A stretch of 49,915 bases of DNA. Source: Acidimicrobiia bacterium. Lineage in GTDB: Bacteria > Actinomycetota > Acidimicrobiia > Spongiisociales > SHLN01. The stretch is from assembly GCA_041619515.1 (NCBI GenBank), contig JBFKDW010000010.1:1-49915 (forward strand). The letters run 5' to 3'. The notes beneath the pieces were generated by a model. The model saw only the letters and a list, made by a program, of their open reading frames with translations. It made no database searches and was not told where the DNA came from. A program made the translations under genes and the position numbers. The first letter of the stretch is position 1; every line of letters begins with the position of its first letter. Shown piece after piece: positions 14,621 through 41,636 of the stretch.

Positions 14621-14658
14621 TTCATGTAACGCTGTTATATAACACCGCTACACTACCA
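14621..14658. promoter_or_regulatory. Operator/promoter motif, copy 1 (TAACGCTGTTATATAAC-N4-CTACACT)
   Basis: Palindrome GTTATATAAC at 14634-14643 with a degenerate partner TTCATGTAAC at 14621-14630; extended -10 TGGTAGTGT on the minus strand; TACACT on the plus strand; near-identical to 23813-23840. Confidence 0.75.
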
Positions 14659-14803
14659 CGCAACTCCCCCCTGCATCCCGCCGACTCCCCGAGCGGAAGC
14701 ATCGCCGCGCCAATGAGCCACAGCCCGATCCGGGCGGTCTAGATTGGGGGATGAACGGGAGCCGACGCACTCGCTCCCCGACAACCGTCGAGACGGGAGG
14801 CGC

Positions 14804-15280
14804 ATGGCCGATTCGATATCGAGGCGGAAGTTTCTGAGCCGCGTCACCCTGGCCATCGGTGGGGCCATCGTTGCCGGATGGGCCGTCCCGGCGGTCGCCT
14901 ATATCTTCGGGCCCGCCCGCAAATCGGATCGGCAGCGCGAGTGGCGGCCGCTTGGCTCTCCCAACAAGGTGGAATTAGGCACGCCCACCTTGTTCAAGAC
15001 CCGTGTTGAGCGGACCACCGGGTGGGTGACCCAGGAGGAAGAGGTCTCGGTCTACGTCTTTACCGAGGACGGCCGGAACTTCACCGGCCTCTCGAACATC
15101 TGCACCCACCTCGGATGCCGGGTGCGCTGGGTCGACGATCAGGAGGCATTCTTCTGCCCCTGTCACAACGCGACATTTGGCAAGGACGGTCGGGTTGCCA
15201 GCGGTCCGCCGCCCCGGCCGCTTGACACCTTTGAGATTATGGTCGACGGCGGGCAGCTGCTCGTGAACCTGGAGGTCTGA
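14804..15280 (+). CDS. qcrA: Rieske [2Fe-2S] subunit of a menaquinol:cytochrome c reductase
   Basis: Tat motif SRRKFL plus one TM helix; CTHLGC and CPCH boxes; GPPPRPL; GGGAGG RBS. Confidence 0.95.
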   Translation: MADSISRRKFLSRVTLAIGGAIVAGWAVPAVAYIFGPARKSDRQREWRPLGSPNKVELGTPTLFKTRVERTTGWVTQEEEVSVYVFTEDGRNFTGLSNICTHLGCRVRWVDDQEAFFCPCHNATFGKDGRVASGPPPRPLDTFEIMVDGGQLLVNLEV

Positions 15281-15281
15281 G

Positions 15282-15971
15282 TTGACCGACGGGATGCACG
15301 AACCGATCGACCAGCCCGCCTCCACCACTACCTGGCTCGACGAACGGACCGGATCGCGCGGCATCTACGAGGCAATCTTCCTGCGCAAGATCCCCAAGAT
15401 CAACTGGCTGTTCACCCTCGGCAGCGCCACATTGTTCGTTCTGGTGAACCAGTTCGTGACGGACATTCTGCTCACCGTCTATTACGTGCCCAGCGTCCAG
15501 GACGCCTACGACACCGTCATCTACATCGACAGCACGCTCCCGATGGGGTGGCTGGTGCGTGGCCTCCACCACTGGGGCGCCACGGCCATGGTGGCGCTCG
15601 TCATACTCCACATGCTGCGAGTCATATTCCACGGTGCCTACAAGTACCCCCGTGAGATCACCTGGGTCACGGGTGTCTTACTACTGCTCCTGACCTTCGC
15701 CTTCGGTTTCACGGGATATTTGCTGCCATGGGACCAGGAGGCCTACTGGGCGACCACAGTGGGTACGCGCATCCTCGAGGTAGTTCCCTTCTTTGGAGAC
15801 TTCCTGCTGCGGATTGCCCGCGGTGGCGACGAGCTTTCGGCCGTCACGTTGTCACGGTTCTTCGGAATCCACGTCTGGATCCTTCCCGCCCTCACGCTGC
15901 TGCTGGTAGCAGTGCATTTGTTTCTGGTGGTGCGGATCGGCATCAGCGCCCCTCCCAAGAAGGAGGATTGA
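15282..15971 (+). CDS. qcrB: Short b6-type cytochrome b subunit
   Basis: Four TM helices; His pairs LHHWGA..LHML and IHVWILP..VHLF; PREITWVTG; FTGYLLPWDQEAYWAT. Start TTG 15282 or ATG 15294. Confidence 0.93.
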   Translation: MTDGMHEPIDQPASTTTWLDERTGSRGIYEAIFLRKIPKINWLFTLGSATLFVLVNQFVTDILLTVYYVPSVQDAYDTVIYIDSTLPMGWLVRGLHHWGATAMVALVILHMLRVIFHGAYKYPREITWVTGVLLLLLTFAFGFTGYLLPWDQEAYWATTVGTRILEVVPFFGDFLLRIARGGDELSAVTLSRFFGIHVWILPALTLLLVAVHLFLVVRIGISAPPKKED

Positions 15972-18100
15972 TGCGCGACGAGGACAAACAGGAATACCAG
16001 GAGAAGTACCAAGAAGCCAAGAAGAAGGGAATTCCCTTCTTTCCCGACGCGCTCTTCAAGGACGCGGTTGTTGCCCTCGCTCTTTTTGCCCTCCTGATAC
16101 TTCTCTCCGCTGCGGTGGGGGCCGCGCTCGAAGAACGGGCCGATCCCTCCGTCGAGTTCGATCCGGAGCCTGAATGGTATTTCCTGTTTCTCTTCCAGCT
16201 GCTGAAGTATTTCCCCGGAAGTCTCGAGTTCGTGGGGGTGGTCGTCCTCCCCGGGATCGTGATTCTTGCCCTGTTTACGCTCCCGTGGCTCGACCGCTCG
16301 GCGCGTAGGCATTTCACCGGAAGGCCGGTGGTCATGTCCGTCACCGGACTGCTCGTTGTCGGCGCAATCGGGCTCACGATTGCCGCTCTCGTCGAGGAGC
16401 CGCCGCCATCGAGTGCCGAGGGCGTGGGTGACCCGGTGGCGGTTCTCTACGTCGAGAACTGCTCCGGCTGCCACGGCGGTGAGCTGACCGTTCCCGACGG
16501 TATCGATCTCGTTCAGGTCATCGCATCAGGTGGGCACCAGGGCATGCCGTCGTGGAGCGGGGACCTGTCGGTCGACGAGATCGACGCTCTGGCCGGGTTC
16601 ATCTTGTCGCCGGGGGGAAGCAAGATCTTCAACCAAATCTGCGCCGACTGTCACGACGTGACGGAGCTGGTTGAGACGGGACCTGCCGACCTCAGGTCGG
16701 CCCTGGAAGATGGCGTCGGCTTTGCCCCGCACTCCGGGGTGGCGATGCCGCAGGCGATGGTTGCCCTCGACCGGCAGGATGTGACCGCCGTCCTGAACTT
16801 TCTGGGTGCTCCAGACGGTCAGCGCCTCTTCGCTGCCAACTGCTCCTCCTGCCACGGTTCTGCCGTGGCTTTCGACGGCGAGGTCGAAGAGCTGAGGAGC
16901 ATCATCGAGACCGGCGGCCAGCATCTCGATATGCCGGCGATGGGCGGGGTTCTATCCGAAAACGACATCTCCGTCCTGGCGTCCTACGTGGTGAGTCCGG
17001 GGAGTGCCGACGAGGAGGCACAAGGCCTGTTTGCCCGCAGCTGTGAGGTCTGTCATGGCTCGCGGGTGCCGACCTCGACCAGCCTTGAAGCGGCGCGCAC
17101 GGCGATCGTGACCGGAGGCGGCCATGAGACCATGCCTATCTGGGGCCAGATCTTCACCGTCGAACAGCTCGATGCGCTCACCGCCTACACCCTCGATTCC
17201 GCCCGCGGCACGCCGGTGCTCAGAGGCCAGGAGATATTTGCGGAGAGTTGTGCCATCTGCCACGGTGATTTCGGCGAGGGGGGCATCAACCCGGCCAACC
17301 CGGCCATGGTGCTGGCGCCCATCAGCACGGCTTCGTACTTGCAGACGAGGGACGACGTGACTATTCGCGCCGTGATCTCCCGCGGCCAGCCCGATCTTGG
17401 AATGTCGCCGTTCTCGCTTTCGTTCGGTGGTTCGCTCGATGACGAGGACGTCAATGCTGTGGTGGCGTTCATCCGCTCGTGGGAAGCTGATCCGCCCGTA
17501 GAACTCCCCCCCGAAATCGAACGGGCACCTCTGCTGGGCACCGGGACAGAGATCTTTGCCGAGTTCTGCTCGCAGTGCCACGGTGTCAACGGCGAGGGCG
17601 GCGTTGGGCCGTCCTTCCAGGACCCTGAATTCCACGCCCGCTTCACCGACGAAGACATGTTCACCGCCATCGACTTTGGCCACGCAGCCACCGCGATGAT
17701 CGCCTGGGGCGAGGTCCTCTCCGATACCCAGATCTCGAGCCTCGTGGCGTTCATCCGCAGGTTCGAAGTGCCTGACGAGCCCCCACCCGGCGCGACGACC
17801 ACGACGACCCAGCCGCCTTCCACCGACGTCTCGTTCTCACAGGACGTGCTCCCGATCCTTCGAGCGAGCTGCGGGGCCTGTCACGGCTCCCTCGGAGGGT
17901 GGGGATCGGAGAGTTACGACGCGGTGATGACCAGCGGCAACAACGCTCCGGTCGTCATGCCAGGCGATCCGGATGACAGCTTGCTCGTCCGGTTGCTGGA
18001 GGACCCCGGGAGTGGGCTGATGCCCCCCGGCGGAGCGCTTTCCGACGCCGAGATCCAACTGATCAGGGACTGGATCGCCGCCGGAGCACTCGACAACTGA
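15971..18100 (+). CDS. qcrC: Subunit IV (PEWY) fused to a heptaheme cytochrome c chain, 709 aa
   Basis: GIPFFPD and PEPEWYFLF, three TM helices, then CSGCH, CADCH, CSSCH, CEVCH, CAICH, CSQCH, CGACH; the last domain resembles planctomycete cytochrome c (PGDPDDSLL..MPP..WIAAGA); AGGAGG RBS and TGATG coupling. Confidence 0.9.
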   Translation: MRDEDKQEYQEKYQEAKKKGIPFFPDALFKDAVVALALFALLILLSAAVGAALEERADPSVEFDPEPEWYFLFLFQLLKYFPGSLEFVGVVVLPGIVILALFTLPWLDRSARRHFTGRPVVMSVTGLLVVGAIGLTIAALVEEPPPSSAEGVGDPVAVLYVENCSGCHGGELTVPDGIDLVQVIASGGHQGMPSWSGDLSVDEIDALAGFILSPGGSKIFNQICADCHDVTELVETGPADLRSALEDGVGFAPHSGVAMPQAMVALDRQDVTAVLNFLGAPDGQRLFAANCSSCHGSAVAFDGEVEELRSIIETGGQHLDMPAMGGVLSENDISVLASYVVSPGSADEEAQGLFARSCEVCHGSRVPTSTSLEAARTAIVTGGGHETMPIWGQIFTVEQLDALTAYTLDSARGTPVLRGQEIFAESCAICHGDFGEGGINPANPAMVLAPISTASYLQTRDDVTIRAVISRGQPDLGMSPFSLSFGGSLDDEDVNAVVAFIRSWEADPPVELPPEIERAPLLGTGTEIFAEFCSQCHGVNGEGGVGPSFQDPEFHARFTDEDMFTAIDFGHAATAMIAWGEVLSDTQISSLVAFIRRFEVPDEPPPGATTTTTQPPSTDVSFSQDVLPILRASCGACHGSLGGWGSESYDAVMTSGNNAPVVMPGDPDDSLLVRLLEDPGSGLMPPGGALSDAEIQLIRDWIAAGALDN

Positions 18101-18193
18101 GCCGATCGGGGGCGGTGTTGGCCAATAACGAGCGATGGGTAGGCTCAGCGGTGTGGAACGGCCTCGTGCCGTCCAGATGATCGGAGGACTGGC

Positions 18194-20233
18194 ATGACGG
18201 CCATCGTGGGCTATCTCGGCATCCTGGTGGCCCTCGTTTCGGCGCTCGCACTCGGTTTGCTGGGAATGCGAGGCGTTCACGATCCCGAGCGGGTGCCCCG
18301 CCGCCATCTGGATCGGGCGGTGTGGGGGATCATGGTCGGCGGCGGCCTGGCTTTCTTCGCGCTCGAGATGGGGCTGCTGATCGATGACTTCTCCGTCGCC
18401 TACATCGCCGATCACTCGGCCAGCACCACACCGTTTGTCTACAAGCTGGCAACGGGCTGGGCGGCCCTCGAAGGAAGCATCGTGCTGTGGGGGCTGGTGC
18501 TGGCGGCTTTCACTTTCACCGTCTACTTGCGATACCGTCGCTCCACCGATCCCGATCCGCTGTGGATCGGGGCGCTTGGAATCATGGGGTTGGTTTCGGC
18601 CTTCTTCTTCGGGATCATGGCGACTATCGCCAACCCGTTTCAGGTGTGTGTGGAAGCGGCCAGCATCGGGTGCCTGGAGGCGAGCAACCTCCCGTGGGCG
18701 GCTGCGATGGCTCCTGTAGAGGGGCCCGGACCCAACCCGTTACTGCAGAACCATCCACTCATGACGATCCACCCGCCGTTGCTGTACATCGGGTATGTCG
18801 GCATGACCGTTCCCTTCGCGTTTGCCATCTCGGCTCTGCTGCGAGGACAAAGCGGAGATGCCTGGCTGCGACGTACCCGCTCCTGGACCCTCGTAGCGTG
18901 GTCTTTCCTCACCGCCGGGATCGTTATCGGTGGCCTGTGGTCATACGAGGTGCTGGGCTGGGGCGGCTATTGGGCGTGGGACCCGGTTGAGAATGCCTCG
19001 TTCATGCCGTGGCTGGTGGCAACCGCCTTCATTCATTCGTCCGTGGTCCAGGAGCGGCGGGGCATGCTCCAGGCCTGGAATTACATACTCGTGATCGCAA
19101 CGTTCGCCCTCACCATTCTCGGCACCTTCCTGACGCGCTCGGGGATCATCGCATCCGTACACAGTTTCACCCAGTCCCCCATAGGCCCGGCGCTCCTGTG
19201 GTTTCTGATGGTGGTGCTCGTCGGCTCGTTGAGCCTGTTCGCCACCCGAATACACCTGGTGGGGTCCTCTCCCCGGCTCAACTCCCTGGCCAGCCGCGAG
19301 GGAGTGTTCCTGTTCAACAACCTCCTGCTTACCGTGTTCGCCTTCGTGGTGCTCATTGGCACCCTTTATCCGATGTTCGTCGAGGCGATCTCAGGTTCCC
19401 AGCTGGGGGTCGGCCGGCCCTTCTTCGACCGCCTCGCCATCCCGCTTTCCTTTGTGCTCCTGCTGGCCATGGGGCTAGGACCCGTCACGCCGTACCGACA
19501 GGCCCGGGCCTCGGTGGTGTGGGAACGAATCCGCACTCCGCTGCGCGGGGCCCTGGCCGCCGGCGCCGGCGCGGTCTTGCTCGGCTATCGGACCGGATAC
19601 CTCGTGCTGGGCGTCGTCGCTGGCACGTTCGTCATCGGGGTGATCGTGCGCCAGTTGTGGGTGACGGCTCAACGCGCCGCAGTCAAGAAACGCGTTCCGA
19701 TAAGGCGTTCCCTGGGAAGAGTGATGCGCAGCGATCCGGGCTACTGGGGCGGGCAGATCGCTCACATCGGCGTAGCCGTGCTGGCGATGGGCATCGCCAT
19801 CTCGGCCAACCAGGGGGTCGAAACCCAGTTGACCCTTGAGCCGGGACAGTCCGCCGCGTTCGCCGGCCACGAGATCACCTATCTCGAAGACTTCTCTCGG
19901 GAGGAGCCCAACCGGAATGTGCTCGGGGCACGCGTCGAGGTGCGGCGCGATGGGCGGGTCGTCTCGGTGCTGGAGCCCCGCCTCAATCAGTATGTCCGCA
20001 GCAGCCAGCCGGTGGCAACCCCGGCGGTCGATACCTCACTGCGCGGTGACTTCTATTTGTCGCTCACCGGCATCGGCGGCGGCCGGATCTCGCTGGATGT
20101 CTTCTGGTTCCCGTTCGTCTGGCTGATCTGGCTCGGCGGCCTGCTGGCGGCTGCCGGAGGAGTGTTTGCACGTGTTGTGCGAAAACCTGCCCGAGCACCG
20201 ACCGAATCCCGGGAGGTCGACGAGCGTGTCTGA
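18194..20233 (+). CDS. ccmF: Cytochrome c heme lyase CcmF/NrfE
   Basis: DDFSVAYI, WAALEGS, NPLLQNH..IHPP, WGGYWAWDPVENAS (WWD motif), TFLTRSG..SVHSF, GGQIAHIG. Confidence 0.96.
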   Translation: MTAIVGYLGILVALVSALALGLLGMRGVHDPERVPRRHLDRAVWGIMVGGGLAFFALEMGLLIDDFSVAYIADHSASTTPFVYKLATGWAALEGSIVLWGLVLAAFTFTVYLRYRRSTDPDPLWIGALGIMGLVSAFFFGIMATIANPFQVCVEAASIGCLEASNLPWAAAMAPVEGPGPNPLLQNHPLMTIHPPLLYIGYVGMTVPFAFAISALLRGQSGDAWLRRTRSWTLVAWSFLTAGIVIGGLWSYEVLGWGGYWAWDPVENASFMPWLVATAFIHSSVVQERRGMLQAWNYILVIATFALTILGTFLTRSGIIASVHSFTQSPIGPALLWFLMVVLVGSLSLFATRIHLVGSSPRLNSLASREGVFLFNNLLLTVFAFVVLIGTLYPMFVEAISGSQLGVGRPFFDRLAIPLSFVLLLAMGLGPVTPYRQARASVVWERIRTPLRGALAAGAGAVLLGYRTGYLVLGVVAGTFVIGVIVRQLWVTAQRAAVKKRVPIRRSLGRVMRSDPGYWGGQIAHIGVAVLAMGIAISANQGVETQLTLEPGQSAAFAGHEITYLEDFSREEPNRNVLGARVEVRRDGRVVSVLEPRLNQYVRSSQPVATPAVDTSLRGDFYLSLTGIGGGRISLDVFWFPFVWLIWLGGLLAAAGGVFARVVRKPARAPTESREVDERV

Positions 20234-20654
20234 CGGCGTGCGCAAAGCGATGGCCGGGCTCCTCACGATTGCGTTGGCCACCATCGTCCTGGTGGGAATC
20301 ATCATTGGCGATGAAACGCCGCAGGACCGTGTCCGGGCTCTCGGGAGCAGCATCAAGTGTCCGGTATGCCAGGGAGAGGCAATTGCCGACTCTCCTTCGG
20401 AAACGGCGACTGCCATGTTGGAAATCGTCGCCGAACAGGTCGATGAGGGACGGTCCGACGACCAGATTCTCGAATACTTTCGTGCCCGCTACGGCGATGG
20501 CATCCTGCTCGATCCTCCGTTCCGGGGGAGAACGCTGGCGCTGTGGCTGCTGCCGGTGGCCGCGGTGGCGGTCGGAGTCGTCATGATTCGTAGCCGCCGA
20601 CAAACTCCCACGATGGTGACACCGGATGGCGACGAGCCTGAGGAAGTCACATGA
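20226..20654 (+). CDS. ccmH: CcmH/NrfF cytochrome c biogenesis protein
   Basis: IKCPVCQGEAIADS and YFRARYGDGILLDPP; GTG start after GGAGG. Confidence 0.92.
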   Translation: MSDGVRKAMAGLLTIALATIVLVGIIIGDETPQDRVRALGSSIKCPVCQGEAIADSPSETATAMLEIVAEQVDEGRSDDQILEYFRARYGDGILLDPPFRGRTLALWLLPVAAVAVGVVMIRSRRQTPTMVTPDGDEPEEVT

Positions 20655-21469
20655 GCGGCGAGGCAGACATGCCCCCCCCGGCCAGCGCTGATTTTTCGCA
20701 ATCTGAGGCGAAGCAACGGCTCGTGGAGCGCCGACAGCACGCTTTGCGTGACCTGGACGAACTGGCCGAGCAGGTGGCGTCGGGGGAGCTGGACGAAGCA
20801 ACAGCTGCCCGGTTGCGCGCCGGATATGAGGCCGAGCTCGAGGCAGTCGACCGGGGGCAGCAAGGCAGCGAATCGGGAGTTCCGACCGAAGGCAGATCTT
20901 CACGGCGAGCGATTGCCGGGGCGTTGTTGCTGATCGCAGCTTTCACGGGGGTAATTCTTCTGGCGTCTCAGACATTCCGGTCGGGGGGCGATCCAAGCCC
21001 GCAAGCACCGTCCGATGTCGCCGCCATTGACGGAGCGACGCTCGAGCAGATGGAGGAGATTGTCGCCTCGCATCCCGATACTCCCGCTATGCGCCTGGCG
21101 CTGGCCGACCTCTACTTTGAACGGGCCAATTATTCCTCGGCCATCGACCACTACCTCGTGGTCCTCTCCGAGAGCGAGCTCACAGACGAAGAGGAGAGCC
21201 GGGCGTTGGGTCGGATCGGGTGGATGGCCTACTCCACCGGTCAGCTGGAGCCCGCGGTTACCTACCTCAGAGCCAGTCTCGTTGCCAATCCCGAATACAT
21301 GGAGGGCAAACTTTTCCTCGCCATGGTGCTCTTCGAAGGGTTCGGCGATGCTGCCGGAGCCGTCCCACTGTTCGAGGAAATACTGGAGGTCCCCAACCTC
21401 CATGACGATATGCGGCTCGCAGTCGAGGCCGCCGCCGAAGAGGCCCGAGCGGCCCTGGATTCCCCATGA
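20651..21469 (+). CDS. ccmI: CcmI/NrfG-like TPR protein
   Basis: LRDLDEL..QVASGELDE..A..LR..YE CcmI-like N-terminus, one TM helix, then TPR-like helices; lies within the ccm operon. Confidence 0.75.
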   Translation: MSGEADMPPPASADFSQSEAKQRLVERRQHALRDLDELAEQVASGELDEATAARLRAGYEAELEAVDRGQQGSESGVPTEGRSSRRAIAGALLLIAAFTGVILLASQTFRSGGDPSPQAPSDVAAIDGATLEQMEEIVASHPDTPAMRLALADLYFERANYSSAIDHYLVVLSESELTDEEESRALGRIGWMAYSTGQLEPAVTYLRASLVANPEYMEGKLFLAMVLFEGFGDAAGAVPLFEEILEVPNLHDDMRLAVEAAAEEARAALDSP

Positions 21470-22053
21470 TCGAAGACGAGACCCGCAGATCACGGAGACG
21501 GAAGCGGGCCTGGCTGGCGATCGCAGGCATCGCCGTGGGCGTCGGGGCGTTGGTGCTCGTCTTTAGCAGCCGCTTCGGCGTAGATCCGCGGCTGGTCAAT
21601 TCTCCCCTCATCGGTGAGCCGATGCCCGCACTCGAACTCGAGCTGTTGGCCGGCGGGGGTTCGCTCGACTTCACCGACCTGAGGGGTGACGTGGTGATCG
21701 TCAACTTCTGGGCATCCTGGTGTTTTCCGTGCCGGGGAGAGCATCCGGCTCTGACCGCGGTGGCGCGCGACTACCAGGATCGCGGAGTGAGTCTGGTCGG
21801 GGTCGTCTATCAGGATCAGCCGGACGAGGCGATGGCCTTCCTCGACGAACTCGGCTGGGGCGGCGACAACTACCGGTACGTGGTCGACCCGAAATCGCGG
21901 GCCGCCGTCGAATTCGGCGTATTCGGGGTTCCTGAGACCTACTTCGTTGATGCCGACGGAATCATCGTGGGCAAGATCCAGGGTGCCGTCACCTCGACGG
22001 CGTTGCGGAGCACCCTCGACCAGATTCTGGCGGGAGAACGCCCCTCCCTCTGA
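21466..22053 (+). CDS. ccmG: CcmG/DsbE thiol:disulfide oxidoreductase
   Basis: N-terminal TM helix, SPLIG, VNFWASWCFPC, FGVFGVPETYFVD. Confidence 0.9.
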   Translation: MIEDETRRSRRRKRAWLAIAGIAVGVGALVLVFSSRFGVDPRLVNSPLIGEPMPALELELLAGGGSLDFTDLRGDVVIVNFWASWCFPCRGEHPALTAVARDYQDRGVSLVGVVYQDQPDEAMAFLDELGWGGDNYRYVVDPKSRAAVEFGVFGVPETYFVDADGIIVGKIQGAVTSTALRSTLDQILAGERPSL

Positions 22054-22229
22054 TGACCTGATGACGGCACCGGGCGGCGGTGGTTGGGTCCGGCTGGGCG
22101 GGGCGATGAACGGAACGGCGGTTTGGTCTGGTCACACGATCCGTCGGTCCGAAGCCCAGCGCGCCAACGCGTGGCGGCTGGAGAGCTGAGCGTCGAACGG
22201 GGTTCCATTACCGTTTTCGAGGAGCAACC

Positions 22230-22396
22230 ATGAACCGCCATCGTTTCGATCCGTTCTCGTTCGTCTTCGGGATCTTGTTTGCCCGATCTGGGTCTTACCG
22301 GTCCTGCTGATTTTGGCTGGGACCGCCATGTTGTGGGCAACGTTCAGCCGGCTGCGGGCGGTCGAACGTGACGGCGTTCGGCCCGACGAAGGCTAA
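22230..22396 (+). pseudogene. Frameshifted or internally deleted remnant of a small membrane protein
   Basis: GAGGAG RBS and MNRHRFDPFSFVFGILF, stopping at 22310; a second frame continues IWVLPVLLILAGTAMLW...EG* to 22396. Confidence 0.45.
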
Positions 22397-22520
22397 AAGG
22401 CTTGGTCCCGAAGCGGCTTGCGACACATGGGCCGTTTGACCGGCGGGGCGAGACGGGGGGACCTGCCGACCCCATCGGTTATTCGACGGGACGCTTCTTC
22501 CAAAACACGCTGCAAAACCG

Positions 22521-22555
22521 AAAACTCGAGGGGCCGGATGCCCGGCCCCTCGGAG
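22521..22555 (-). terminator. Intrinsic terminator of the hexaheme gene
   Basis: 11-bp stem CGAGGGGCCGG / CCGGCCCCTCG (22527-22552), followed by AGTTTTCGGTTTT on the minus strand. Confidence 0.75.
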
Positions 22556-22574
22556 TGCTGTTAGGTCGGATCGG

Positions 22575-23624
22575 CTATTGCAGAACCTCGAGGGCGTACT
22601 CGAGCATCGCCTTGGTATACGCCGGGTTGTGGACTCCGTGGCTCTGGTCTTCTTGCACCATGACGTAGTTCCACATGGCGTTCGCCACTTCTTCAGGGAA
22701 GACGCCATCGACCGAGCGGAATCCTTCTGGGTCGAGATCGTTGTTCAGGATGCCGGCTGCGACCAGCAGCGGCCTGATTTGGGCGAGCAGCTCCTCGGTG
22801 TCGGTCTGCACGCCGTTGCGATCGAACGTATCCAGATCGGCGTGGCAGCTCTGGCAGTTGGCGAGATCGGGTTCGAAGGTGTGATTGCGAGTCTCGCCCA
22901 TATGGCAGCCGACACAGGTGTCTACTACAAGCTGGTAATGCACGCTTTCGGTGCCGGGAATCCCGAGCGCACCTTCGCCGAGCAGCATCTGCGCCTCGGT
23001 TCCGTGGTGGGTGCCGAACCGGCTGGTCCCGGTCTCGATCTCGCCGGCAGTGACCACGGGGGCCTCGTTGCGAATCTGGTGGCAGTTGGCACACAGGTTG
23101 CCGAGGCCGCCGTCGAAGGTGCCGGCCGTGTACTCAAGCTTCACGGCGGCGGCATCGCCGGTCAGGGAGAAGTCGGCGCGGGTGTAGGTCTCATGGATGT
23201 CGTGACAGGTGCGACACGAATACGGTGAGACGTTCTCAACGCCCTCCACCGAAGGGTCGTGGGGAGGAAGGCCGGCTTCGATACGCGCCTCGGCACCCTC
23301 GCTGCCGTGGCAACCGGCGCAATTGGTGCTCTCACCGCGGATAAACGCCTCTCCGGTGCCGTGGACCGATACTTCATTCATCTGCGCCTGCTTGGAGATG
23401 ATGAGGGTTCCACTGTCGTGACACTCGGTGCAGGTGAGGTCGGCTGTGTCTATTACGCCGGCGGGCCCAGCGGGGCCGGCGGGGCCGGCAGGTCCGGCGG
23501 GGCCGGCGGGGCCGGCAGCGCCATCCTCTCCGCCGCTACACCCGGCCAAAACGAGAAACATGCTCATGAAAAGCATCATCCGAACAATCTGACCTAGCGA
23601 CCAAGGTTCGCGCTTAGGGCCCAT
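22575..23624 (-). CDS. Hexaheme c-type cytochrome lipoprotein with collagen-like linker
   Basis: Lipobox LAGC; (GPA)6; CTECH, CAGCH, CRTCH, CANCH, CVGCH, CQSCH; C-terminal EDQSHGVHNPAY resembling the NrfA-superfamily helical bundle; GAGGGAG RBS before ATG 23624 (the ORF extends to 23660). Confidence 0.9.
   Translation of the reverse strand: MGPKREPWSLGQIVRMMLFMSMFLVLAGCSGGEDGAAGPAGPAGPAGPAGPAGPAGVIDTADLTCTECHDSGTLIISKQAQMNEVSVHGTGEAFIRGESTNCAGCHGSEGAEARIEAGLPPHDPSVEGVENVSPYSCRTCHDIHETYTRADFSLTGDAAAVKLEYTAGTFDGGLGNLCANCHQIRNEAPVVTAGEIETGTSRFGTHHGTEAQMLLGEGALGIPGTESVHYQLVVDTCVGCHMGETRNHTFEPDLANCQSCHADLDTFDRNGVQTDTEELLAQIRPLLVAAGILNNDLDPEGFRSVDGVFPEEVANAMWNYVMVQEDQSHGVHNPAYTKAMLEYALEVLQ
23460..23513 (-). 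repeat. 9-bp coding tandem repeat encoding (Gly-Pro-Ala)6
   Basis: GED-GAA-(GPA)6-GVI gives nine Gly-X-Y triplets directly after the lipobox. Confidence 0.9.
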
Positions 23625-23664
23625 GTTCCGCTCCCTCACTGCTTCTGTGTTCGACACCATCCGT

Positions 23665-23801: not shown

Positions 23802-23840
23802 GCACCGTTATATAACGCTGTTATATAACGGTGCTACACT
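23802..23840. promoter_or_regulatory. Operator/promoter motif, copy 2: perfect 15-bp inverted repeat plus -10
   Basis: GCACCGTTATATAAC-gct-GTTATATAACGGTGC (23802-23834), then TACACT (23835-23840), 9 nt before ATG 23850. Confidence 0.85.
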
Positions 23841-23849
23841 TCAACACCA

Positions 23850-31619: not shown

Positions 31620-32597
31620 CTACCCGTCCGCCCGGCGCCGCTCGGCCATCCCGTTGAGCACTTCCAACACCAGGCGGTTGGCCAGAAAAGCGGTGATCTC
31701 ACCGGGGCCGTCGTACGGGGGCGAGACCTCGACGATGTCGGCCCCCACCACCGGCAGATCGCGTGCCAGTCGGCGCAACGTGTCGAGCAACTGTCGAGAG
31801 GTGAGGCCGCCCGGCTCGGGGGTGCCGGTGGCGGGAGCCATGCCGGGGTCGACCACGTCGATGTCGACCGACAGGAACACCGCGTCCGCCCCATCGGCGG
31901 CGTAGGCAACGGCCTCGTCGACCACCGCCCCCAGCCCCCGCTCTTCGATGTCCGACATGAGGTAGCTGCGCATGCCCTGCTCCGCCATCCACTCGACCAC
32001 CGGAGGATCGGGCCAATAGCCGCGCAAACCAATCTGGACGAACCGATGGCCGGCAACCGCTCCGGACTCGATGAGCCGGCGCATGGGTGTCCCGTGCCCG
32101 AGCAGGGCGCCGGGCAGGTTGGTCTCGGCCGTGTCGGCGTGGGCGTCGAAATGAATGAGTGCGATATCACCGTGGACGGCCGCCACCGCCCGGGCATTCG
32201 GGAAGGTGATCGAATGGTCGCCGCCGAGGACGACGGGAACCGCCCCGTGGCGGGCGATTCGTTCCACTGCATCGGCGATGAGGTCGAGCGACTCCTCGAT
32301 GTATCCCACCGGCAGCAGCAGATCGCCGCAGTCCACCACCTTGAGCGTCGACAGCGGATCGATTCCGGTCGGCAGGTGGGGGCGATAGCCGTCGAACCCG
32401 AGATAGTCGGCTTCCCGGATTGCCTTGGGACCGAAGCGAGCTCCCGGCCGGTGGGTGGTTCCCCAGTCGAACGGAGCGCCGAGGATGACGACGCCCGCGT
32501 CTCCCAAGTCGTCGAGTGGCCGGGCGGGGACGCCGGAGAACGAGGCGCGGGAAGCAAAGGCCGAGACCCGGGCCGACTCGAACGGATCGGCGCTCAC
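31620..32597 (-). CDS. speB: Agmatinase (ureohydrolase family)
   Basis: GAPFDWGTTHRPGARFGP, GGDHS, DAHAD, HGTP, SVDIDVVDP..APATGTPEPGG, VEVSPPYD. Confidence 0.9.
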   Translation of the reverse strand: MSADPFESARVSAFASRASFSGVPARPLDDLGDAGVVILGAPFDWGTTHRPGARFGPKAIREADYLGFDGYRPHLPTGIDPLSTLKVVDCGDLLLPVGYIEESLDLIADAVERIARHGAVPVVLGGDHSITFPNARAVAAVHGDIALIHFDAHADTAETNLPGALLGHGTPMRRLIESGAVAGHRFVQIGLRGYWPDPPVVEWMAEQGMRSYLMSDIEERGLGAVVDEAVAYAADGADAVFLSVDIDVVDPGMAPATGTPEPGGLTSRQLLDTLRRLARDLPVVGADIVEVSPPYDGPGEITAFLANRLVLEVLNGMAERRRADG

Positions 32598-33226
32598 GAG
32601 TCGGCGCCGTATTCGGGGTTATCCCACACGATGAGCGCCGACCAGCTGTCGGTTGCCTCGTCCGAGATGTAGTTCTCGAGCGCGTCCAGCAGCCGGAATC
32701 CGTTCTGCTTCTGGAACGTGAGGGTCGGGTCGTAGAGCTCGCCGGCGTCGACTTTGCGAATGTAGTCGGCGGCCGACAGCTCGTGCTTGTGATCTGCGAA
32801 GCCGGGCATGTAGCCGCCGGCGATGATCCCCTTGCGGTTGAACCGCACGACCAGGTCCTTGCGCAGCTCGTAGAGGCGCCTGCCGATGCCGCGGCGCCGG
32901 TACTCCGGGTCGACGACGATGTCGGTGCCGTAGTACCACTCGCCGGCGGGATCGTGATTCCCGCATTGATGCTCGCCGGTTACTTCGGTGATCGAATGCT
33001 GGGGATGATCGAAGTCGAAGTCGAGGAAGATACCCGCTCCCTGGCCCACCACCCGGTCGCCGTCGAGACAGACGAAGAATCCCTCGGGAAAGGTGTCGGC
33101 GTAGGCGCGGATGTCGGCTTCCGAGAGCAGATCCGTCGGATCGGCATGCGGGAAAGCTCGCAACTCGAGCGCCGCACACTGCGGTGCCAGCTCGGCGGTG
33201 AGATTTTCGTACCGCAGCTCGCTCAT
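32594..33226 (-). CDS. GNAT family N-acetyltransferase (YkwB-like)
   Basis: FPEGFFV, HDPAGEWYYGTDIVVDPEYRRRGIGRRLY, YIRKVDAGELYDPTLTFQ..NGF. Confidence 0.88.
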   Translation of the reverse strand: MSELRYENLTAELAPQCAALELRAFPHADPTDLLSEADIRAYADTFPEGFFVCLDGDRVVGQGAGIFLDFDFDHPQHSITEVTGEHQCGNHDPAGEWYYGTDIVVDPEYRRRGIGRRLYELRKDLVVRFNRKGIIAGGYMPGFADHKHELSAADYIRKVDAGELYDPTLTFQKQNGFRLLDALENYISDEATDSWSALIVWDNPEYGADS

Positions 33227-34308
33227 GCGTTGAGATCGCTTCGTTGCTCGAGCCGGAAGTGCTCGAACTCGTTTTCCGACGGCACGCCCCAGCATGCCCA
33301 GAAGTCCCCGGTAGCGGGCCGCAGGATGGTTGCACCCGAGCTCTCGTAATCGAAAGGGGGCTCGGGCCGGCGGCAGATGGCACGCTCGTCTCGTGTCAGA
33401 TTCATGAGGGCTTCGACCGTCACCGGGGTCTGCGCCAGATGCTCGGGCGCCTGCTGCAGCCGCTGCTCGGAGGACAGCTGCAGCGCCGCGGGCCGCTCAC
33501 CCTCCACCGCCCGGGTGGCCGGAAACAGGCAATGATTGGTGTGCACGAGCGGGCTCCGGTCGAGCTCGGCTATGTGTTGTGCGGTCGGGGTTGCCTCGAT
33601 CGAGACCCCGTTCCCCTGCCTGTCCAAGATCAAGAAGTTGTGGCCGCCGGCCAGTGGAGCATCGAGCACGCTGTCCACGGCCGCCCGGAACGAGGTTTGT
33701 GCCAGGACCTTGCGCACCACGAAGGGCCAGGTCACGCCCACCGCACCGTCGTCGACCGTGAGGTTGTTGATCCCGATGGATATGCCTGCCTCGTTCATGC
33801 CGATCTGGCCGAGCGTTCCCACCGTGGTGAAGACCAGCGACCGGGGAGCGTCTTCGGGAGAAAGACCGAGCATGACCACGTGGTCGGTGGCAGACGCGTG
33901 CATGTCCCAGGTCTGCGCCAGGTAGCCGGCTCCGTCCGCGAGGTGATCGGGGACGATGACGGCGGTACAGGTGTCCTCGACTGCAGTGCCGCCAGCTTCC
34001 GCCCGGACGGTATCGATGAAGTCGGTGTACCCGCCGACCACCACCGCCTCGGCCGGGGTGATGCCGGCGGCGGCGGCCATGGCGAGCATCTCCTCGTAGA
34101 GACCCGAGTCGTAGGCCTCATGAGCGGGGAGCATGCGAGCGGCGAGCTCCAGGATGCGATCGCGGTTCCAGTCGGTGCCGGCGGCGGCCAGGCGAGCGCG
34201 CTCGGCGGCGTAGCCACGGATGGCCTGCCCGAAGGCCGCACCGTGTGATCGGCCGAGATCGGCGGCGGAGCCGTCGATCCACAGCACCCGGATGGGGTCG
34301 CGCATCAT
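33223..34308 (-). CDS. C45 family Ntn hydrolase/acyltransferase
   Basis: Autoprocessing site DTCT, AQTWD, IGMNEAG, INNL, HTNH. Confidence 0.87.
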   Translation of the reverse strand: MMRDPIRVLWIDGSAADLGRSHGAAFGQAIRGYAAERARLAAAGTDWNRDRILELAARMLPAHEAYDSGLYEEMLAMAAAAGITPAEAVVVGGYTDFIDTVRAEAGGTAVEDTCTAVIVPDHLADGAGYLAQTWDMHASATDHVVMLGLSPEDAPRSLVFTTVGTLGQIGMNEAGISIGINNLTVDDGAVGVTWPFVVRKVLAQTSFRAAVDSVLDAPLAGGHNFLILDRQGNGVSIEATPTAQHIAELDRSPLVHTNHCLFPATRAVEGERPAALQLSSEQRLQQAPEHLAQTPVTVEALMNLTRDERAICRRPEPPFDYESSGATILRPATGDFWACWGVPSENEFEHFRLEQRSDLNA

Positions 34309-35741
34309 TTCAGACCGCCGATGAAGCGGGTCATGGGCTCGAGGTACTCCAGCAGCCCTTCGGTCCCCGATTCTCTCCCCAGGCCGGACTGTTTGACTCC
34401 GCCGAACGGTGCCTCGGGAGCCACCGGATACCAATCGTTGACCCCCACCATGCCGAACTCGAGGGCGTCGGATGCATGCAGCGCGTTGTTGAGGTCCGAT
34501 GTCCAGACGAAGGCGCTCAGCCCGTGCTCGACGCTGTTGGCGAGGGTGATCGCTTCGTCGGCGGTATCGAACGATTGCACCGGCAGCACCGGCCCGAACA
34601 CCTCCTCGACGGCCAGCGGGGCGGCCTCGGGCAAGCCCGACATGACTGTGGGACGGTAGAAGAATCCGGGCCCGCCCGGCCTGCTTCCTCCCGACACGAT
34701 CGAGGCGCCGGCATCGACGCTGTCCGACACCATTCGCTCCACTCGCGCCCGGTGGGCCTCATTGATGAGAGGCCCGACCGTGGTGGCGGGGTCGATCGGG
34801 CTGCCGACGACCTCGCGCTCGGACGCCTCGGAAACCGCCTTGGTGAACTGGTCGACGATCGAGCCGTGAACCAGGAAGCGCTGGGGGGCGATACACACCT
34901 GGCCGCTGTTGCGGTACTTGGCAGTCACCGCCGAGGCGGCCACCGCCTCCAGGTCCGCCACGTCCGGAAAGACCAGCACCGGGGCGTTGCCACCCAGCTC
35001 CAGCGACAGCTTGGTGATGGTGCGGGAGGCGCCGTCCATCAGCAGCTTGCCCACCCGCACCGAGCCGGTGAAGTGGATCTTGCGGAGCCTGGCGTCGTCG
35101 AGCATCGCCTGGCCCATGGCATGGGGCTCGCCGTTCACGACGTTGATCACCCCGGCCGGAACTCCGGCATCGGCCAGGGCCCTGGCGTACAGCATCGCCG
35201 ACCGGGGCGTGTGCTCGGAGGGGCGCACTACGACCGTGCAGCCGGCGGCGAGTGCGGATGAGACCGCCCGGTTGATGTTGTAGACGGGGAAGTTCCAGGC
35301 GGTGATCACCCCGACGACGCCCAGCGGCCGGTAGGTGACGTCGATCCTGCGGCCGGGGGAGCGGGCCGGGATGATGCGCCCGCCCATCCGCTTGCCCTCC
35401 TCGGCCGCGTACGTCAGGTAGTTGGGTGCCGACAACCACTCGGCGACGGCCTGGGCGAGGGGCTTGCCCGACTCTTCGGTCGTGACGGCGGCGTAGTCGG
35501 CGGCGCGCTCGGCGAGGAGGGCGGCGGCGTGTGTGAGGACTGTGGCCCGCTCGTAGGGGTTGGTGTGGGCCCACTCCTCGGCTGCAGCTGCTGCCGCGTC
35601 GATGGCCGCTTCGACATCGGCTGCGTCTCCGTAGGGCACGGTGCCGGCGATCTCCTCGGTGGCGGGGTTGACGAGCTGCCAGGTGCCACCCCCGGCGGCC
35701 GGCACCCACTCACCACCGACGAGCTGCAGGTATTCGTTCAC
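34305..35741 (-). CDS. gabD: NAD(P)-dependent succinate-semialdehyde dehydrogenase-like ALDH
   Basis: ESGKPL, AWNFP, FTGS, LELGGNAP, KYRNSGQVC, EEVFGP, PFGGVKQSGLGRE; GTG start overlaps the lrp stop. Confidence 0.85.
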   Translation of the reverse strand: MNEYLQLVGGEWVPAAGGGTWQLVNPATEEIAGTVPYGDAADVEAAIDAAAAAAEEWAHTNPYERATVLTHAAALLAERAADYAAVTTEESGKPLAQAVAEWLSAPNYLTYAAEEGKRMGGRIIPARSPGRRIDVTYRPLGVVGVITAWNFPVYNINRAVSSALAAGCTVVVRPSEHTPRSAMLYARALADAGVPAGVINVVNGEPHAMGQAMLDDARLRKIHFTGSVRVGKLLMDGASRTITKLSLELGGNAPVLVFPDVADLEAVAASAVTAKYRNSGQVCIAPQRFLVHGSIVDQFTKAVSEASEREVVGSPIDPATTVGPLINEAHRARVERMVSDSVDAGASIVSGGSRPGGPGFFYRPTVMSGLPEAAPLAVEEVFGPVLPVQSFDTADEAITLANSVEHGLSAFVWTSDLNNALHASDALEFGMVGVNDWYPVAPEAPFGGVKQSGLGRESGTEGLLEYLEPMTRFIGGLK

Positions 35742-36226
35742 CGCGTGCCCCAGTCGTAGGTCTGTTTGACGAGGCTGATGTAGCTGAACACCTCGACCTC
35801 CGACACCCCCGGGATGGAGCGGATGCGGTTGACGGTCTCGAGCATGTGGCGGTTGGTCTCGCACACGATCTCGAGCAGCATGTCGAATCGGCCGGTGGTG
35901 ACGACGAGATAGTCGACCTCGGACATGGCGGCGGCGGAGGTGGCGATGGCATCGAGCTCGCCCACCGCCTTTACCCCGAGCATGGCCTGCACGTCGAACC
36001 CGAGAGTGGTCGGGTCGGTGACCGCCACGATCTGGATGGCACCCCCGTCGATGAGCTGCAGCACACGCTGGCGCACGGCCGGAGGTGACAGCCCGACGAG
36101 TGGTGCCAGGTTCTTGTACGACATCCGCCCGTCCTCCTGGAGGGCTTGGATGATCGCCTTGTCGGTTTCGTCGAGACGCAGGGGTGCTTCGCCGGCGACG
36201 GCAGTGGAACGTGCGGTCTGGTCCAT
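35738..36226 (-). CDS. Lrp/AsnC family regulator
   Basis: LDETDKAIIQALQEDGRMSY..LA..VGLS..AVRQRV; IVAVTDP; TGRFDML. Confidence 0.93.
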   Translation of the reverse strand: MDQTARSTAVAGEAPLRLDETDKAIIQALQEDGRMSYKNLAPLVGLSPPAVRQRVLQLIDGGAIQIVAVTDPTTLGFDVQAMLGVKAVGELDAIATSAAAMSEVDYLVVTTGRFDMLLEIVCETNRHMLETVNRIRSIPGVSEVEVFSYISLVKQTYDWGTR

Positions 36227-36270
36227 TCCTTCTCTCCGATCGAAGCCAGGTTGTGCGACCAGCCTATCAT

Positions 36271-36307
36271 TTGCAATGGGGTATCTGGCAAGTCATACTG
36301 TTGCAAT
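36271..36307 (+). promoter_or_regulatory. Probable gabT-pot promoter with two TTGCAAT boxes 30 bp apart
   Basis: TTGCAA(36271-36276)-17-CATACT(36294-36299); TTGCAAT at 36271 and 36301. Confidence 0.5.
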
Positions 36308-36349
36308 AGTCGCCGTGGGCAACCGAATCGAAAGGTGATAGCGAGCACC

Positions 36350-37699
36350 ATGGGCACCGGCATACGACTCGTCACCGAGATCCCGGGTCCCGCCAGCCGT
36401 GCGCTCGTCGCCCGCCGCGAAGCCGCCACTCCCCGGGGAGCGAGCAAGCTGACTCAGCTTGCTGTCGAGACCGCAGACGGTGCCCTGGTCACCGATGTCG
36501 ACGGCAACGTGCTCATCGATCTCGCCGGTGGCATCGGAGTGCTCGCCGTCGGCCACACCCCGCCGGCGGTGGTGTCGGCCCTGCAACGCCAGGCCGCCGC
36601 CCTCATCCACATGTGTGCCATCGTTGCCACCTACGAGCCCTACGTGGCAGTCGCCGAGCGCCTCAACGCCGTCACCCCGGGCGACTTCGCCAAGAAGACG
36701 GTGCTGATGAACAGCGGGGCGGAGGCGGTCGAAACAGCCGTCAACATCTGCCGCTCCGCCAGCGGACGCCAGGGAGTGGTCGTGTTCGACGGCAGCTACC
36801 ACGGTCGTACCAACCTCACCCTGGCCATGACATCCAAGTTCGGGCTCTTCAAGAAGGGCTTCGGGCCCTTCTCACCAGAGGTGTATCGCTTCCCGTTCCC
36901 GAACACCTACCGGCGGCCTTCGGACAGGTCCCCCGCCGAGCACATCCGGTGGCACACCGAGAATCTCGAGCACTGTTTCACCGCCATCGTCGACCCGGCT
37001 CACGTGGCGTGCGTTGTGGTCGAGCCGGTGCAGGGGGAAGCCGGATTCATCCCGGCGCCGGCCGAGTGGCTGGCCCGCCTCCGGGAATTATGCGACCAGC
37101 ACGGGATCCTGCTGGTCGCCGACGAGATCCAGTCCGGGATGGGCCGAACCGGCGAGGTGTTTGCCATCGAGCACACCGGGGTCGTTCCCGACCTCGTCAC
37201 CACCGCCAAATCGCTGGCGGCGGGAATGCCCTTGTCGGCCGTGACGGGCCGGGCGGAGGTCATGGACGCTCCGCATCCGGGTGGGCTGGGGGGCACCTAC
37301 TCGGGCAATCCGCTCGCCTGCGCCGCCGCCCTTGCCGCCATCGACCAGATCACCGACCCCGCCTTCCTGGCGCGAGCCCGAGAGATCGGAAACAAGCTGC
37401 GGGGCCGGCTGCAGGCGATCCAGGACCGGCACCCCGGCATGGTTGGGGACGTGCGCGGAGTGGGGCCAATGCTCGTGATGGAGCTGGTTCGCGATCCAGA
37501 TTCGAAAGCGCCGTGGATGGAAGCGGCTTCGGCCGTCACCGCCGAAACGGTGCGCAACGGGGTCATAACCATACGGTCCGGGCTGTTCTCCAACTGCGTG
37601 CGGTTCCTGCCTCCCCTCACCGTCGGCGACGACCTGCTCGACGAGGCAATGGATGTGGTGGAGAACGCAGTGGACACCGTCGCCAAGGAGTTGGCGTGA
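36350..37699 (+). CDS. gabT: 4-aminobutyrate--2-oxoglutarate aminotransferase
   Basis: DVDGNVLIDLAGGIGV, NSGAEAVE, YHGRTNLT, EPVQGEAGF, ADEIQSGMGRTG, AKSLAAGMPLS, GGTYSGNP. Confidence 0.92.
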   Translation: MGTGIRLVTEIPGPASRALVARREAATPRGASKLTQLAVETADGALVTDVDGNVLIDLAGGIGVLAVGHTPPAVVSALQRQAAALIHMCAIVATYEPYVAVAERLNAVTPGDFAKKTVLMNSGAEAVETAVNICRSASGRQGVVVFDGSYHGRTNLTLAMTSKFGLFKKGFGPFSPEVYRFPFPNTYRRPSDRSPAEHIRWHTENLEHCFTAIVDPAHVACVVVEPVQGEAGFIPAPAEWLARLRELCDQHGILLVADEIQSGMGRTGEVFAIEHTGVVPDLVTTAKSLAAGMPLSAVTGRAEVMDAPHPGGLGGTYSGNPLACAAALAAIDQITDPAFLARAREIGNKLRGRLQAIQDRHPGMVGDVRGVGPMLVMELVRDPDSKAPWMEAASAVTAETVRNGVITIRSGLFSNCVRFLPPLTVGDDLLDEAMDVVENAVDTVAKELA

Positions 37700-38760: not shown

Positions 38761-38761
38761 C

Positions 38762-40521: not shown

Positions 40522-40538
40522 TAGGAGGATTACGAGCC

Positions 40539-41630: not shown

Positions 41631-41636
41631 CCGGCA

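Follow-up and report, generated by a model that had tools for sequence, protein, structure and literature searches.

A split Rieske/cytochrome b triad with seven fused cytochrome c domains beside the only CcmF gene of an Acidimicrobiia genome: a proposed accessory menaquinol oxidase

The first 49,915 nucleotides of contig JBFKDW010000010.1 (the window) belong to the assembly GCA_041619515.1 of an Acidimicrobiia bacterium, whose genome comprises 3.1 Mb and is 95.65% complete. A block of about 9.2 kb of this window was analysed. It contains the genes of a Rieske protein, a short cytochrome b and a subunit IV fused to a seven-heme cytochrome c (the triad), followed by four cytochrome c maturation (ccm) genes and a convergent gene for a hexaheme lipoprotein. 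Where would such a complex send its electrons, and how did it come to stand beside a heme lyase? On balance, we lean towards an accessory Q-cycle menaquinol oxidase that would feed an extracytoplasmic network for high-potential extracellular or anaerobic acceptors, with an OcwA-like lipoprotein as the exit. The genes and their motifs, the fold of the hexaheme protein, the co-occurrence of these components, and the mosaic origin and insertion site of the block are the observations from which this argument is built.

The triad and the housekeeping complex III

The triad represents a family of at least 1304 protein clusters (E 1e-30 or better), with at least 551 confirmed stretches in GTDB genomes; the locus tallies given below cover the best 80 of these. 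The ligands of the Rieske cluster are present in both boxes (CTHLGC and CPCH), and the cytochrome b carries its heme-b histidines at positions 96-97, 110, 197 and 212. The quinol oxidation (Qo) site reads PEWY in 79 of the 80 loci. Among 77 cytochrome b rows, the site of heme ci reads TLGS in 72 and ALGS in two; the remaining three were misread by the pattern. The Rieske signature, tallied in 75 rows, is G-F in 38, A-F in 34 and A-Y in one, and is unreadable in two. Potentials of about 150 mV for G-F and of more than 260 mV for S-Y have been given (PMC4122944), and a low potential of the A-F protein encoded here is an extrapolation from G-F.

The CxxCH motifs of the fusion protein start at residues 164, 224, 291, 358, 427, 533 and 634. 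They lie in separate class-I domains (PF13442/PF00034/PF07635) at a spacing of 60-106 residues. Each of 29 aligned homologues (29 of 29) contains all seven motifs, together with six invariant Met and five other invariant His residues. Of 75 full-length orthologues obtained in the GTDB scan, 74 likewise have seven motifs and one has eight; the number is therefore not due to chance. Domain 2 contains an invariant His where the six other domains contain an invariant Met, and the segment G-H-x-x-M-P retains both a His and a Met as candidate sixth heme ligand. A PDB search with the class-I domains gave CcoP as best match, and a search of the ESM Atlas with the seven-heme part yielded generic cytochrome clusters only, with scores below 0.9. 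The single-sequence AlphaFold model of the 709-residue fusion had a mean predicted local distance difference test (pLDDT) score of 38.6 and was not used. Judged by its sequence, the heme-bearing part appears to be a row of small class-I modules rather than a stacked multiheme fold, although the five other invariant His residues would also allow a different heme ligation. Of the "heptaheme wire" proposed in an earlier note on this DNA, the seven hemes are confirmed; a close packing of them is not suggested by the sequence. The designation "b6-type" holds for the split architecture, with a four-helix cytochrome b and a separate three-helix subunit IV, but not for heme ci, whose site reads TLGS.

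A PEWY-cyt c clade has been defined that has spread by lateral transfer and carries a class-I cytochrome c domain as a fusion (PMC4122944), and TLGS has been reported for the split complexes of Rubrobacter and Conexibacter (PMC5600118). By PEWY, fused class-I cytochrome c and TLGS, the triad appears to match this clade (Kao & Hunte 2014, PMC4122944) or subfamily D (Dibrova et al. 2017, PMC5600118), our own trees being confined to the triad family. The resemblance extends to the fusion with the C-terminal part of cytochrome b, the split b, the occurrence as a second copy beside an APWY complex, and lateral spread. In contrast, the text of PMC4122944 mentions "a class I cyt c domain", with no domain counts in its Table S6, whereas the triad has seven conserved domains; the same table lists no member of the clade from Chloroflexota or Acidimicrobiia. 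Moreover, the context of the triad is a multiheme island. With the b6c complexes of Bacillus and heliobacteria the triad shares the split cytochrome b and menaquinol as substrate, and subunit IV of Bacilli is likewise fused to a class-I cytochrome c (PMC4122944 Table S6). However, the b6c complexes contain heme ci (YCFGG/YCLGG) and those of Bacilli PDWY, whereas the triad has TLGS and PEWY. The b6c complexes carry one or two c hemes, as compared to seven in the triad.

The canonical actinobacterial complex QcrCAB also has a menaquinol-oxidising Rieske/cytochrome b core, but its unsplit QcrB, multi-transmembrane QcrA, separate diheme QcrC and PDWY motif are missing from the triad. The corresponding models score far below their cut-offs (NF050120, 121 of 500 bits; NF050121, 41.5 of 275; NF050122, 73.8 of 200). 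The earlier note had contrasted the block with this canonical complex. No qcrCAB was found in the genome, where only two cytochrome b genes were matched. The second one, on contig C8, belongs to a split Rieske/cytochrome b complex whose motifs are APWY and LCLGG, with S-Y in the Rieske protein. The housekeeping complex of the lineage is itself split, and canonical QcrCAB is therefore the wrong comparator. The same three motifs are found in Ilumatobacter (supplement of PMC4122944). Within the order, 40 of 41 genomes contain a cytochrome b, which in most cases falls into the identity range of the C8 gene (43-47%); the window type (62-75% identity), like the triad as a whole, is present in nine of 40 relatives. 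The C8 operon (L023:9108-14805) encodes a membrane protein, a 2x[4Fe-4S] ferredoxin, cytochrome b, subunit IV, the Rieske protein and a diheme cytochrome, and is followed by a gene for a Rex-like regulator. Its subunit IV contains a duplicated Ala-rich N-terminal repeat that also occurs in a CcoP-like gene.

Contig C51 encodes an A-family oxidase that retains all His ligands and whose subunit II is fused to a cytochrome c. Together, the C8 complex and this oxidase would already cover aerobic respiration, and the cell would combine a high-potential housekeeping complex with a low-potential accessory triad. Beside the C8 complex lies a CcoN-CcoO fusion (L023:6525-8438), which, aligned to solved cbb3 oxidases, lacks most of the CuB and heme b3/b histidines and is probably a catalytically dead oxidase homologue. 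For this reason, a housekeeping complex feeding a cbb3 oxidase was ruled out. Weak COX1-family matches akin to the fusion occur in several related genomes, and it may be a conserved pseudo-oxidase. MenD is present in the genome; futalosine MqnA/D, the multicopper oxidase/NirK family and cytochrome bd were searched for in the genome and not found. As noted earlier, there is no terminal oxidase gene within the block.

The eight genes and their heme counts, first listed in the earlier note, were confirmed by Pfam and NCBIfam models, gene calls and CxxCH counts (Table 1). The triad genes are separated by gaps of at most 1 nt. Two or more CxxCH motifs occur in only seven stop-to-stop frames of the entire genome. 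The hexaheme frame is open up to position 23660, and the likely start at 23624 is preceded by GGAG at a distance of 7 nt and followed by the lipobox LAGC. Contigs from public runs span both block junctions as well as the borders between the inner genes and hardly differ from the window, the left junction being spanned only by runs that are possibly the source of the window and the right one also by two other studies. A sigma-70 scan gave no promoter above chance, and none of the public runs listed holds RNA data for the locus. Between ccmG and the hexaheme gene, positions 22230-22400 resemble a frameshifted remnant of a gene for a small membrane protein.

Table 1. Features of the analysed block (positions in the window).
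Feature	Position	Strand	Characteristics	Basis
Rieske [2Fe-2S] subunit	14804..15280	+	158 residues; RR (twin-arginine) signal anchor, one transmembrane helix; CTHLGC / CPCHNATF; A-F signature	PF00355, transmembrane scan, motif tallies
Cytochrome b, short four-helix	15282..15971	+	229 residues; four transmembrane helices; four heme-b His; TLGS instead of heme ci CxGG	PF00033
Subunit IV-cytochrome c fusion	15971..18100	+	709 residues; three transmembrane helices; PEWY Qo motif; 7 CxxCH	PF00032 + PF13442/PF00034/PF07635
CcmF heme lyase	18194..20233	+		PF01578 + PF16327; genome searches
CcmH, heme lyase subunit	20226..20654	+	start as given by gene caller	PF03918
CcmI-like tetratricopeptide repeat (TPR) protein	20651..21469	+	place in ccmF-H-I-G unit kept in congeners	TPR families
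CcmG/DsbE thiol-disulfide oxidoreductase	21466..22053	+		TIGR00385 best but below cut-off; PF08534
Hexaheme lipoprotein	22575..23624	-	lipobox LAGC; collagen-like G-P-A stalk; OcwA/OmhA-type heme domain with His-His motif; C-terminal three-helix bundle; no CxxCK	PDB profile search, AlphaFold model, fold searches, conservation
Left copy of duplicated operator/promoter element	14624..14659	+	palindromic GTTATATAAC core; bounds inserted block	single copy at empty site in congener G002
Right copy of operator/promoter element	23807..23845	+	two GTTATATAAC cores; immediately precedes FAD oxidoreductase gene (23850)	

The hexaheme lipoprotein and the company of the triad

Single-sequence PDB searches with the hexaheme protein and with the related decaheme protein of other triad islands gave nothing useful. 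A profile of 110 rows, in contrast, identified OcwA (6I5B, E 1.6e-16) and OmhA (6QVM, E 5.7e-15) as top matches, followed by NrfA and octaheme nitrite reductases. The heme-free AlphaFold model of the hexaheme protein reached a pLDDT of 94.5. With this model, Foldseek found OcwA (E 1.4e-6) and OmhA (E 4.4e-5), and structural alignment with VIA-align yielded Z values of 15.2 and 14.9, respectively, at a root mean square deviation of 3.8-3.9 over about 232 residues. The His-His motif aligns with that of OcwA; H148 is present in 110 of 110 rows and H149 in 76. The CxxCK motif of the catalytic NrfA heme is absent from both the hexaheme and the decaheme protein, the latter being a hexaheme paralogue with two OcwA-like modules. 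The initial description as a hexaheme lipoprotein is thus supported by the lipobox, the six CxxCH motifs and the OcwA/OmhA fold found in profile and fold searches.

OcwA is the surface terminal reductase of Thermincola and has His-His motifs over open hemes; it titrates between +100 and -450 mV and reacts with iron oxide and shuttles, and in vitro with nitrite and hydroxylamine (PMC6703420). OcwA and OmhA have been grouped as cell-surface proteins (PMC9250108); both are cytochromes of Gram-positive Fe(III) reducers, located at the cell surface or in the S-layer (PMC6703420, PMC9250108). The hexaheme protein resembles OcwA of Thermincola potens and OmhA of Carboxydothermus ferrireducens in its NrfA-superfamily core, the three-helix bundle, a His-His motif near a probably open heme, the lack of a Lys-ligated heme and a surface location in a monoderm cell, which is putative for the hexaheme protein. 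It differs in having six hemes instead of nine and eleven, respectively, in probably having one open site and not two, and in its lipoprotein anchor and collagen-like stalk. Sequence identity is 22-27%, and the aligned region corresponds to OcwA residues 184-525, i.e. approximately hemes 4-9.

The triad is found in a restricted set of organisms. According to record titles, the 80 loci comprise 60 from Chloroflexota (mostly Anaerolineales), 16 from Actinomycetota and four others; the closest named homologues, among the matches listed, are from Acidimicrobiia. In this class the triad occurs in nine of 301 genomes, all of one order. No full-length homologue was found on plasmids. Trees were calculated with FastTree (79 rows) and IQ-TREE (26 rows) from the 80 scan loci and 11 loci of relatives, after removal of rows lacking either gene at 85% coverage and of two duplicates. 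In the unrooted FastTree tree, one branch with a support of 94 separates 51 Chloroflexota rows from the 28 others. This suggests one old inter-phylum transfer of either direction, the set of rows being biased toward query-like sequences.

Within the order, the OcwA-like lipoprotein is encoded in ten of ten triad carriers as compared to three of 31 other genomes, and an ImcH-like gene in ten of ten as compared to two of 31. An unpublished genome (G028) is counted here among the triad-negative rows. The nominal Fisher p of 2.6e-7 overstates the co-occurrence owing to the kinship of the carriers. Further triad genomes, 50 of the 80 scanned and picked mainly for long loci, contain a match to the hexaheme profile in 44 cases; three of the six misses have the decaheme gene in the locus. 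The 28 Chloroflexota loci of at least 19 kb contain a NapC/ImcH-like gene in 24 cases, a CbcL-like pair in 17-18 and an NrfD gene in 19; at least one of these types is present in 26, and a hexa- or decaheme lipoprotein in 23. Physical linkage is looser, since the hexaheme gene lies within one fetched locus with the triad in only 16 of 60 Chloroflexota and one of 16 Actinomycetota. The linkage expected in other genomes is therefore found as genome-wide co-occurrence rather than as adjacency. In the three genomes G018, G038 and G029 (L032:10767-14780, L036, L038), an eight-heme version of the triad is followed by a second Rieske/cytochrome b operon with APWY and without the heme ci Cys, which begins with a gene for a GltD-like flavin/iron-sulfur (FeS) NAD(P) oxidoreductase. 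In G004 (L035:4024-7509, L034:6678-9212), proteins with three PKD domains fused to nine or five class-I cytochrome c domains are encoded directly upstream of the triad; they are possibly a second beads-on-a-string cytochrome of the cell surface.

In congener G006, the triad, an FeS-NrfD module, ccmFHIG and the hexaheme, CbcL-like and ImcH-like genes form a single run, and the same parts are spread over three contigs in the genome studied here. Contig C44 (L024:9295-13235) encodes a nonaheme cytochrome, a cytochrome of the b type that bears a c heme at its C-terminus, and a protein of the NapC family with three transmembrane helices, one CX3CH and six CxxCH motifs. These genes look like a split CbcL-like and ImcH-like pair in an actinobacterium, the nonaheme and b-type genes resembling the layout of CbcL. 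Contig C3 (L025:9310-14286) encodes an FeS protein, an NrfD-family membrane protein, and a diheme and a tetraheme class-I cytochrome; in congeners, this FeS-NrfD module sits between the triad and ccmF. The NapC-family protein fits the description of ImcH in PMC6295460. As in Geobacter with ImcH and CbcL, this genome and most triad islands encode an ImcH-like protein and a nonaheme cytochrome beside a b-type cytochrome. In contrast to Geobacter, the CbcL-like unit is split into two genes, there is an additional Rieske Q-cycle complex that has a cytochrome chain of its own, and a porin-cytochrome conduit is not needed in a monoderm cell. Two other operons score under family cut-offs, one of the type II dimethyl sulfoxide (DMSO)-reductase family (alpha, beta, chaperone and heme b subunits) on contig C18 (L159:6727-14381) and one for a PhsA/Psr-like molybdoenzyme on contig C33 (L158:2662-7594). 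Both possibly serve further anaerobic respiration.

Mosaic origin of the block and its insertion site

The ccmF gene of the block is the only CcmF match in the genome. The other PF01578 match is CcmC, within a ccmABC(D)E cluster on contig C66, where ccmE, ccmC, ccmB and a gene for a CcmA-like ATPase together with ccmFHIG of the block make up System I (Ccm); ResB of System II was searched for in the genome and not found. As the sole CcmF, the protein encoded in the block must mature all c-type cytochromes of the cell. The notion of a "self-contained" module with "its own heme lyase" thus finds no support, the remainder of the pathway being encoded on another contig. A dispensable island with a dedicated lyase was likewise ruled out, because ccmF is single-copy and present in 39 of the 41 genomes of the order.

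The genes of the block differ in their relationship to congeners. Identity amounts to 82-84% for ccmF (four congeners) and to 86-88% for the hexaheme gene (two congeners; 47% in a third), but only to 49-63% for the triad, and the convergent ccm-hexaheme layout is common to the block and the congeners. A grouping of the triad with the copies of the congeners was rejected (approximately unbiased test, p 1.6e-68; IQ-TREE, 26 rows). The three closest triads (70-71% identity) are bare three-gene cassettes; the hexaheme gene lies elsewhere in their genomes, in one of them in two pieces. Direct transfer from Chloroflexota to this genome was ruled out, as the nearest relatives are other Actinomycetota-type triads in the unrooted tree. 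Low G+C content at third codon positions of some block genes is weak evidence, as the native ccmH and ccmI are lowest. The triad is not the sole, vertically inherited bc complex of the lineage. The description as an accessory, probably acquired menaquinol-oxidising module agrees with a near-universal second complex, the patchy occurrence of the triad and its failure to group with congeners.

The insertion site can be traced. A 36-nt direct repeat (D7; 14624-14659 and 23810-23845), whose copies are 83% identical and 9186 nt apart, bounds the 9.2 kb. The 10-mer core GTTATATAAC occurs three times in the genome, each time at one of the two ends of the block. In congener G002, the genes for an aldehyde dehydrogenase (91% identity) and a flavin adenine dinucleotide (FAD) oxidoreductase (80%) are 60 nt apart and enclose one copy of the element; they are also adjacent in four genomes of a sister genus. 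The element probably serves as operator/promoter for the adjoining cluster of aminotransferase, aldehyde dehydrogenase and FAD oxidoreductase genes, which has a TetR gene at 26922. We infer that a triad of foreign or paralogous origin became linked to the native ccm-hexaheme unit and came to lie in this promoter region. The local gene block would then be a product of rearrangement and not a functional unit. The GTTATATAAC element contains a -10-like hexamer, TACACT, and its left copy is now directed into the Rieske operon. Farther downstream, positions 31620-43303 hold what by inspection looks like a cluster for the uptake and breakdown of polyamine-type compounds (agmatinase-like, aldehyde dehydrogenase, aminotransferase, Lrp-type regulator, PotABCD-like ATP-binding cassette transporter, amidohydrolase).

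Proposed electron route and competing explanations

According to our proposal, menaquinol would be oxidised at the PEWY Qo site. One electron would cross the membrane via the two b hemes in a Q cycle with proton translocation, and the other would pass via the low-potential Rieske cluster onto the tethered string of seven class-I cytochrome c domains outside the membrane. In a cell without a periplasm, this string would replace the diffusible cytochrome pool and buffer electrons. The triad would be the highest-yield entry into a multi-tier extracytoplasmic network, whose genes form a single island in Anaerolineae and in part of the Acidimicrobiia, and here are scattered over C44, C3 and the block. 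The exit would be the lipid-anchored OcwA-like hexaheme protein or its decaheme paralogue, from which electrons could reach extracellular or soluble non-oxygen acceptors. Because a Rieske cluster near +150 mV is at or above the top of the OcwA window, this route would serve fairly high-potential acceptors only, and the ImcH/CbcL-like routes lower ones. These tiers are modelled on the potential-tiered quinol oxidases of Geobacter (PMC5322298). Direction of flow, potentials, partner and acceptor are deduced, and direct hand-off from the seven hemes to the hexaheme protein would be energetically marginal. A co-fold of the last two cytochrome domains of the fusion (residues 515-709) with the hexaheme protein scored 0.00, which speaks neither for nor against it.

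Several findings weigh against this proposal. Transfer from a Rieske cluster near +150 mV via His/Met hemes to most hemes of the OcwA range (PMC6703420) would be uphill, and class-I His/Met domains with CcoP as best PDB match resemble donors of oxidases. The folds of NrfA and octaheme nitrite reductases follow closely behind OcwA and OmhA (Z 12.4-12.9), so that the fold does not fix the function. The association is weaker in Actinomycetota, where four of nine long loci contain a hexa- or decaheme gene and six contain ccmF, and the carriers in the order come from four families, so that its 41 genomes are not 41 independent observations. Finally, a COX1-family gene scores over the cut-off in 39 of the 50 further triad genomes, including all 12 not titled Chloroflexota.

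This last finding leads to the best-surviving alternative, in which the triad is an aerobic or micro-oxic complex III feeding a caa3 oxidase, and the association with the island reflects a shared need for Ccm and co-transfer. It would account for the CcoP-like domains and for the three closest triads standing alone in their loci. Moreover, the A-family oxidase of this genome is intact, complexes of the PEWY-cyt c clade occur in many aerobes (PMC4122944 Table S6), and with the CcoN-like gene by the APWY complex lacking active-site His, a single working oxidase is left to feed. However, no heme-copper oxidase subunit was matched in any of the 80 triad loci. The triad is missing from 31 of the 41 genomes of the order, although nearly all of them retain another cytochrome b, and its low-potential Rieske signature contrasts with the S-Y of the housekeeping complex. 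In addition, no COX1-family gene over the cut-off was found in 11 of 38 Chloroflexota carriers, these 11 being metagenome-assembled genomes of unstated completeness. Taken together, we regard this alternative as unlikely, albeit worth keeping in mind.

It is far less probable that the current runs inward, i.e. that the hexaheme protein is reduced by a donor outside the cell (Fe(II), reduced humics, a cathode or a partner cell) and passes the electrons via the seven-heme chain to an oxidase or, driven by the proton motive force, through a reversed Rieske complex to menaquinone. The step from a hexaheme protein of low potential, by analogy to OcwA, to higher class-I hemes would be downhill, and a Chloroflexi isolate has been reported with both anodic and cathodic extracellular electron transfer (EET; PMC7399161). 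Nevertheless, reverse operation is tied to APWY and not to PEWY complexes (PMC4122944), and the other island members resemble quinol oxidases of metal reduction (ImcH definition, PMC6295460). Very doubtful, too, is a role of the seven hemes mainly as a capacitor for the Q cycle in short oxic-anoxic swings, with the hexaheme protein acting on nitrite, NO or hydroxylamine via a five-coordinate heme instead of reducing minerals: the retained His-His motif, the nearby NrfA-family folds and the in vitro activity of OcwA would suit such an enzyme, but CxxCK is absent, nitrite reduction by OcwA is weak (kcat about 1 per minute; PMC6703420), and the lipobox together with the collagen-like stalk points to exposure at some distance from the membrane.

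Returning to the accessory menaquinol oxidase, every part of it has a known relative, and the triad is a widespread, uncharacterised variant of complex III and no new class of machine. A seven-domain subunit IV, a six-heme relative of OcwA and a conserved Anaerolineae/Acidimicrobiia island were not found in the open-access literature. For Anaerolineae, multiheme cytochromes are described as abundant and extracellular transfer is suspected, no pathway or Rieske complex being named in the pertinent parts of these sources (bioRxiv 10.1101/2021.08.23.457424; PMC7399161). We tentatively suggest that Anaerolineae and one order of Acidimicrobiia might share an undescribed, complete monoderm EET system. 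In this system, three to four menaquinol oxidases of different potential (ImcH-like, split CbcL-like, NrfD-type and Rieske Q-cycle) would deliver electrons to OcwA-type surface lipoproteins, the Rieske complex doing so via a string of seven cytochromes as a stand-in for the periplasmic pool.

The locus shows a respiratory complex that moves as a three-gene cassette and has been joined, at a traceable insertion site, to the only heme lyase of its host. Through it, the range of OcwA-type proteins, previously thermophilic Firmicutes, comes to include Chloroflexota and Actinomycetota. Furthermore, it provides a conserved and testable list of parts: a quinol-oxidising complex III fused to seven cytochromes, partners resembling ImcH and CbcL, and an exit of the OcwA type. 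If the proposed system exists, abundant, as yet uncultured bacteria of sediments would couple the energy conservation of a Q cycle to respiration on minerals or electrodes.

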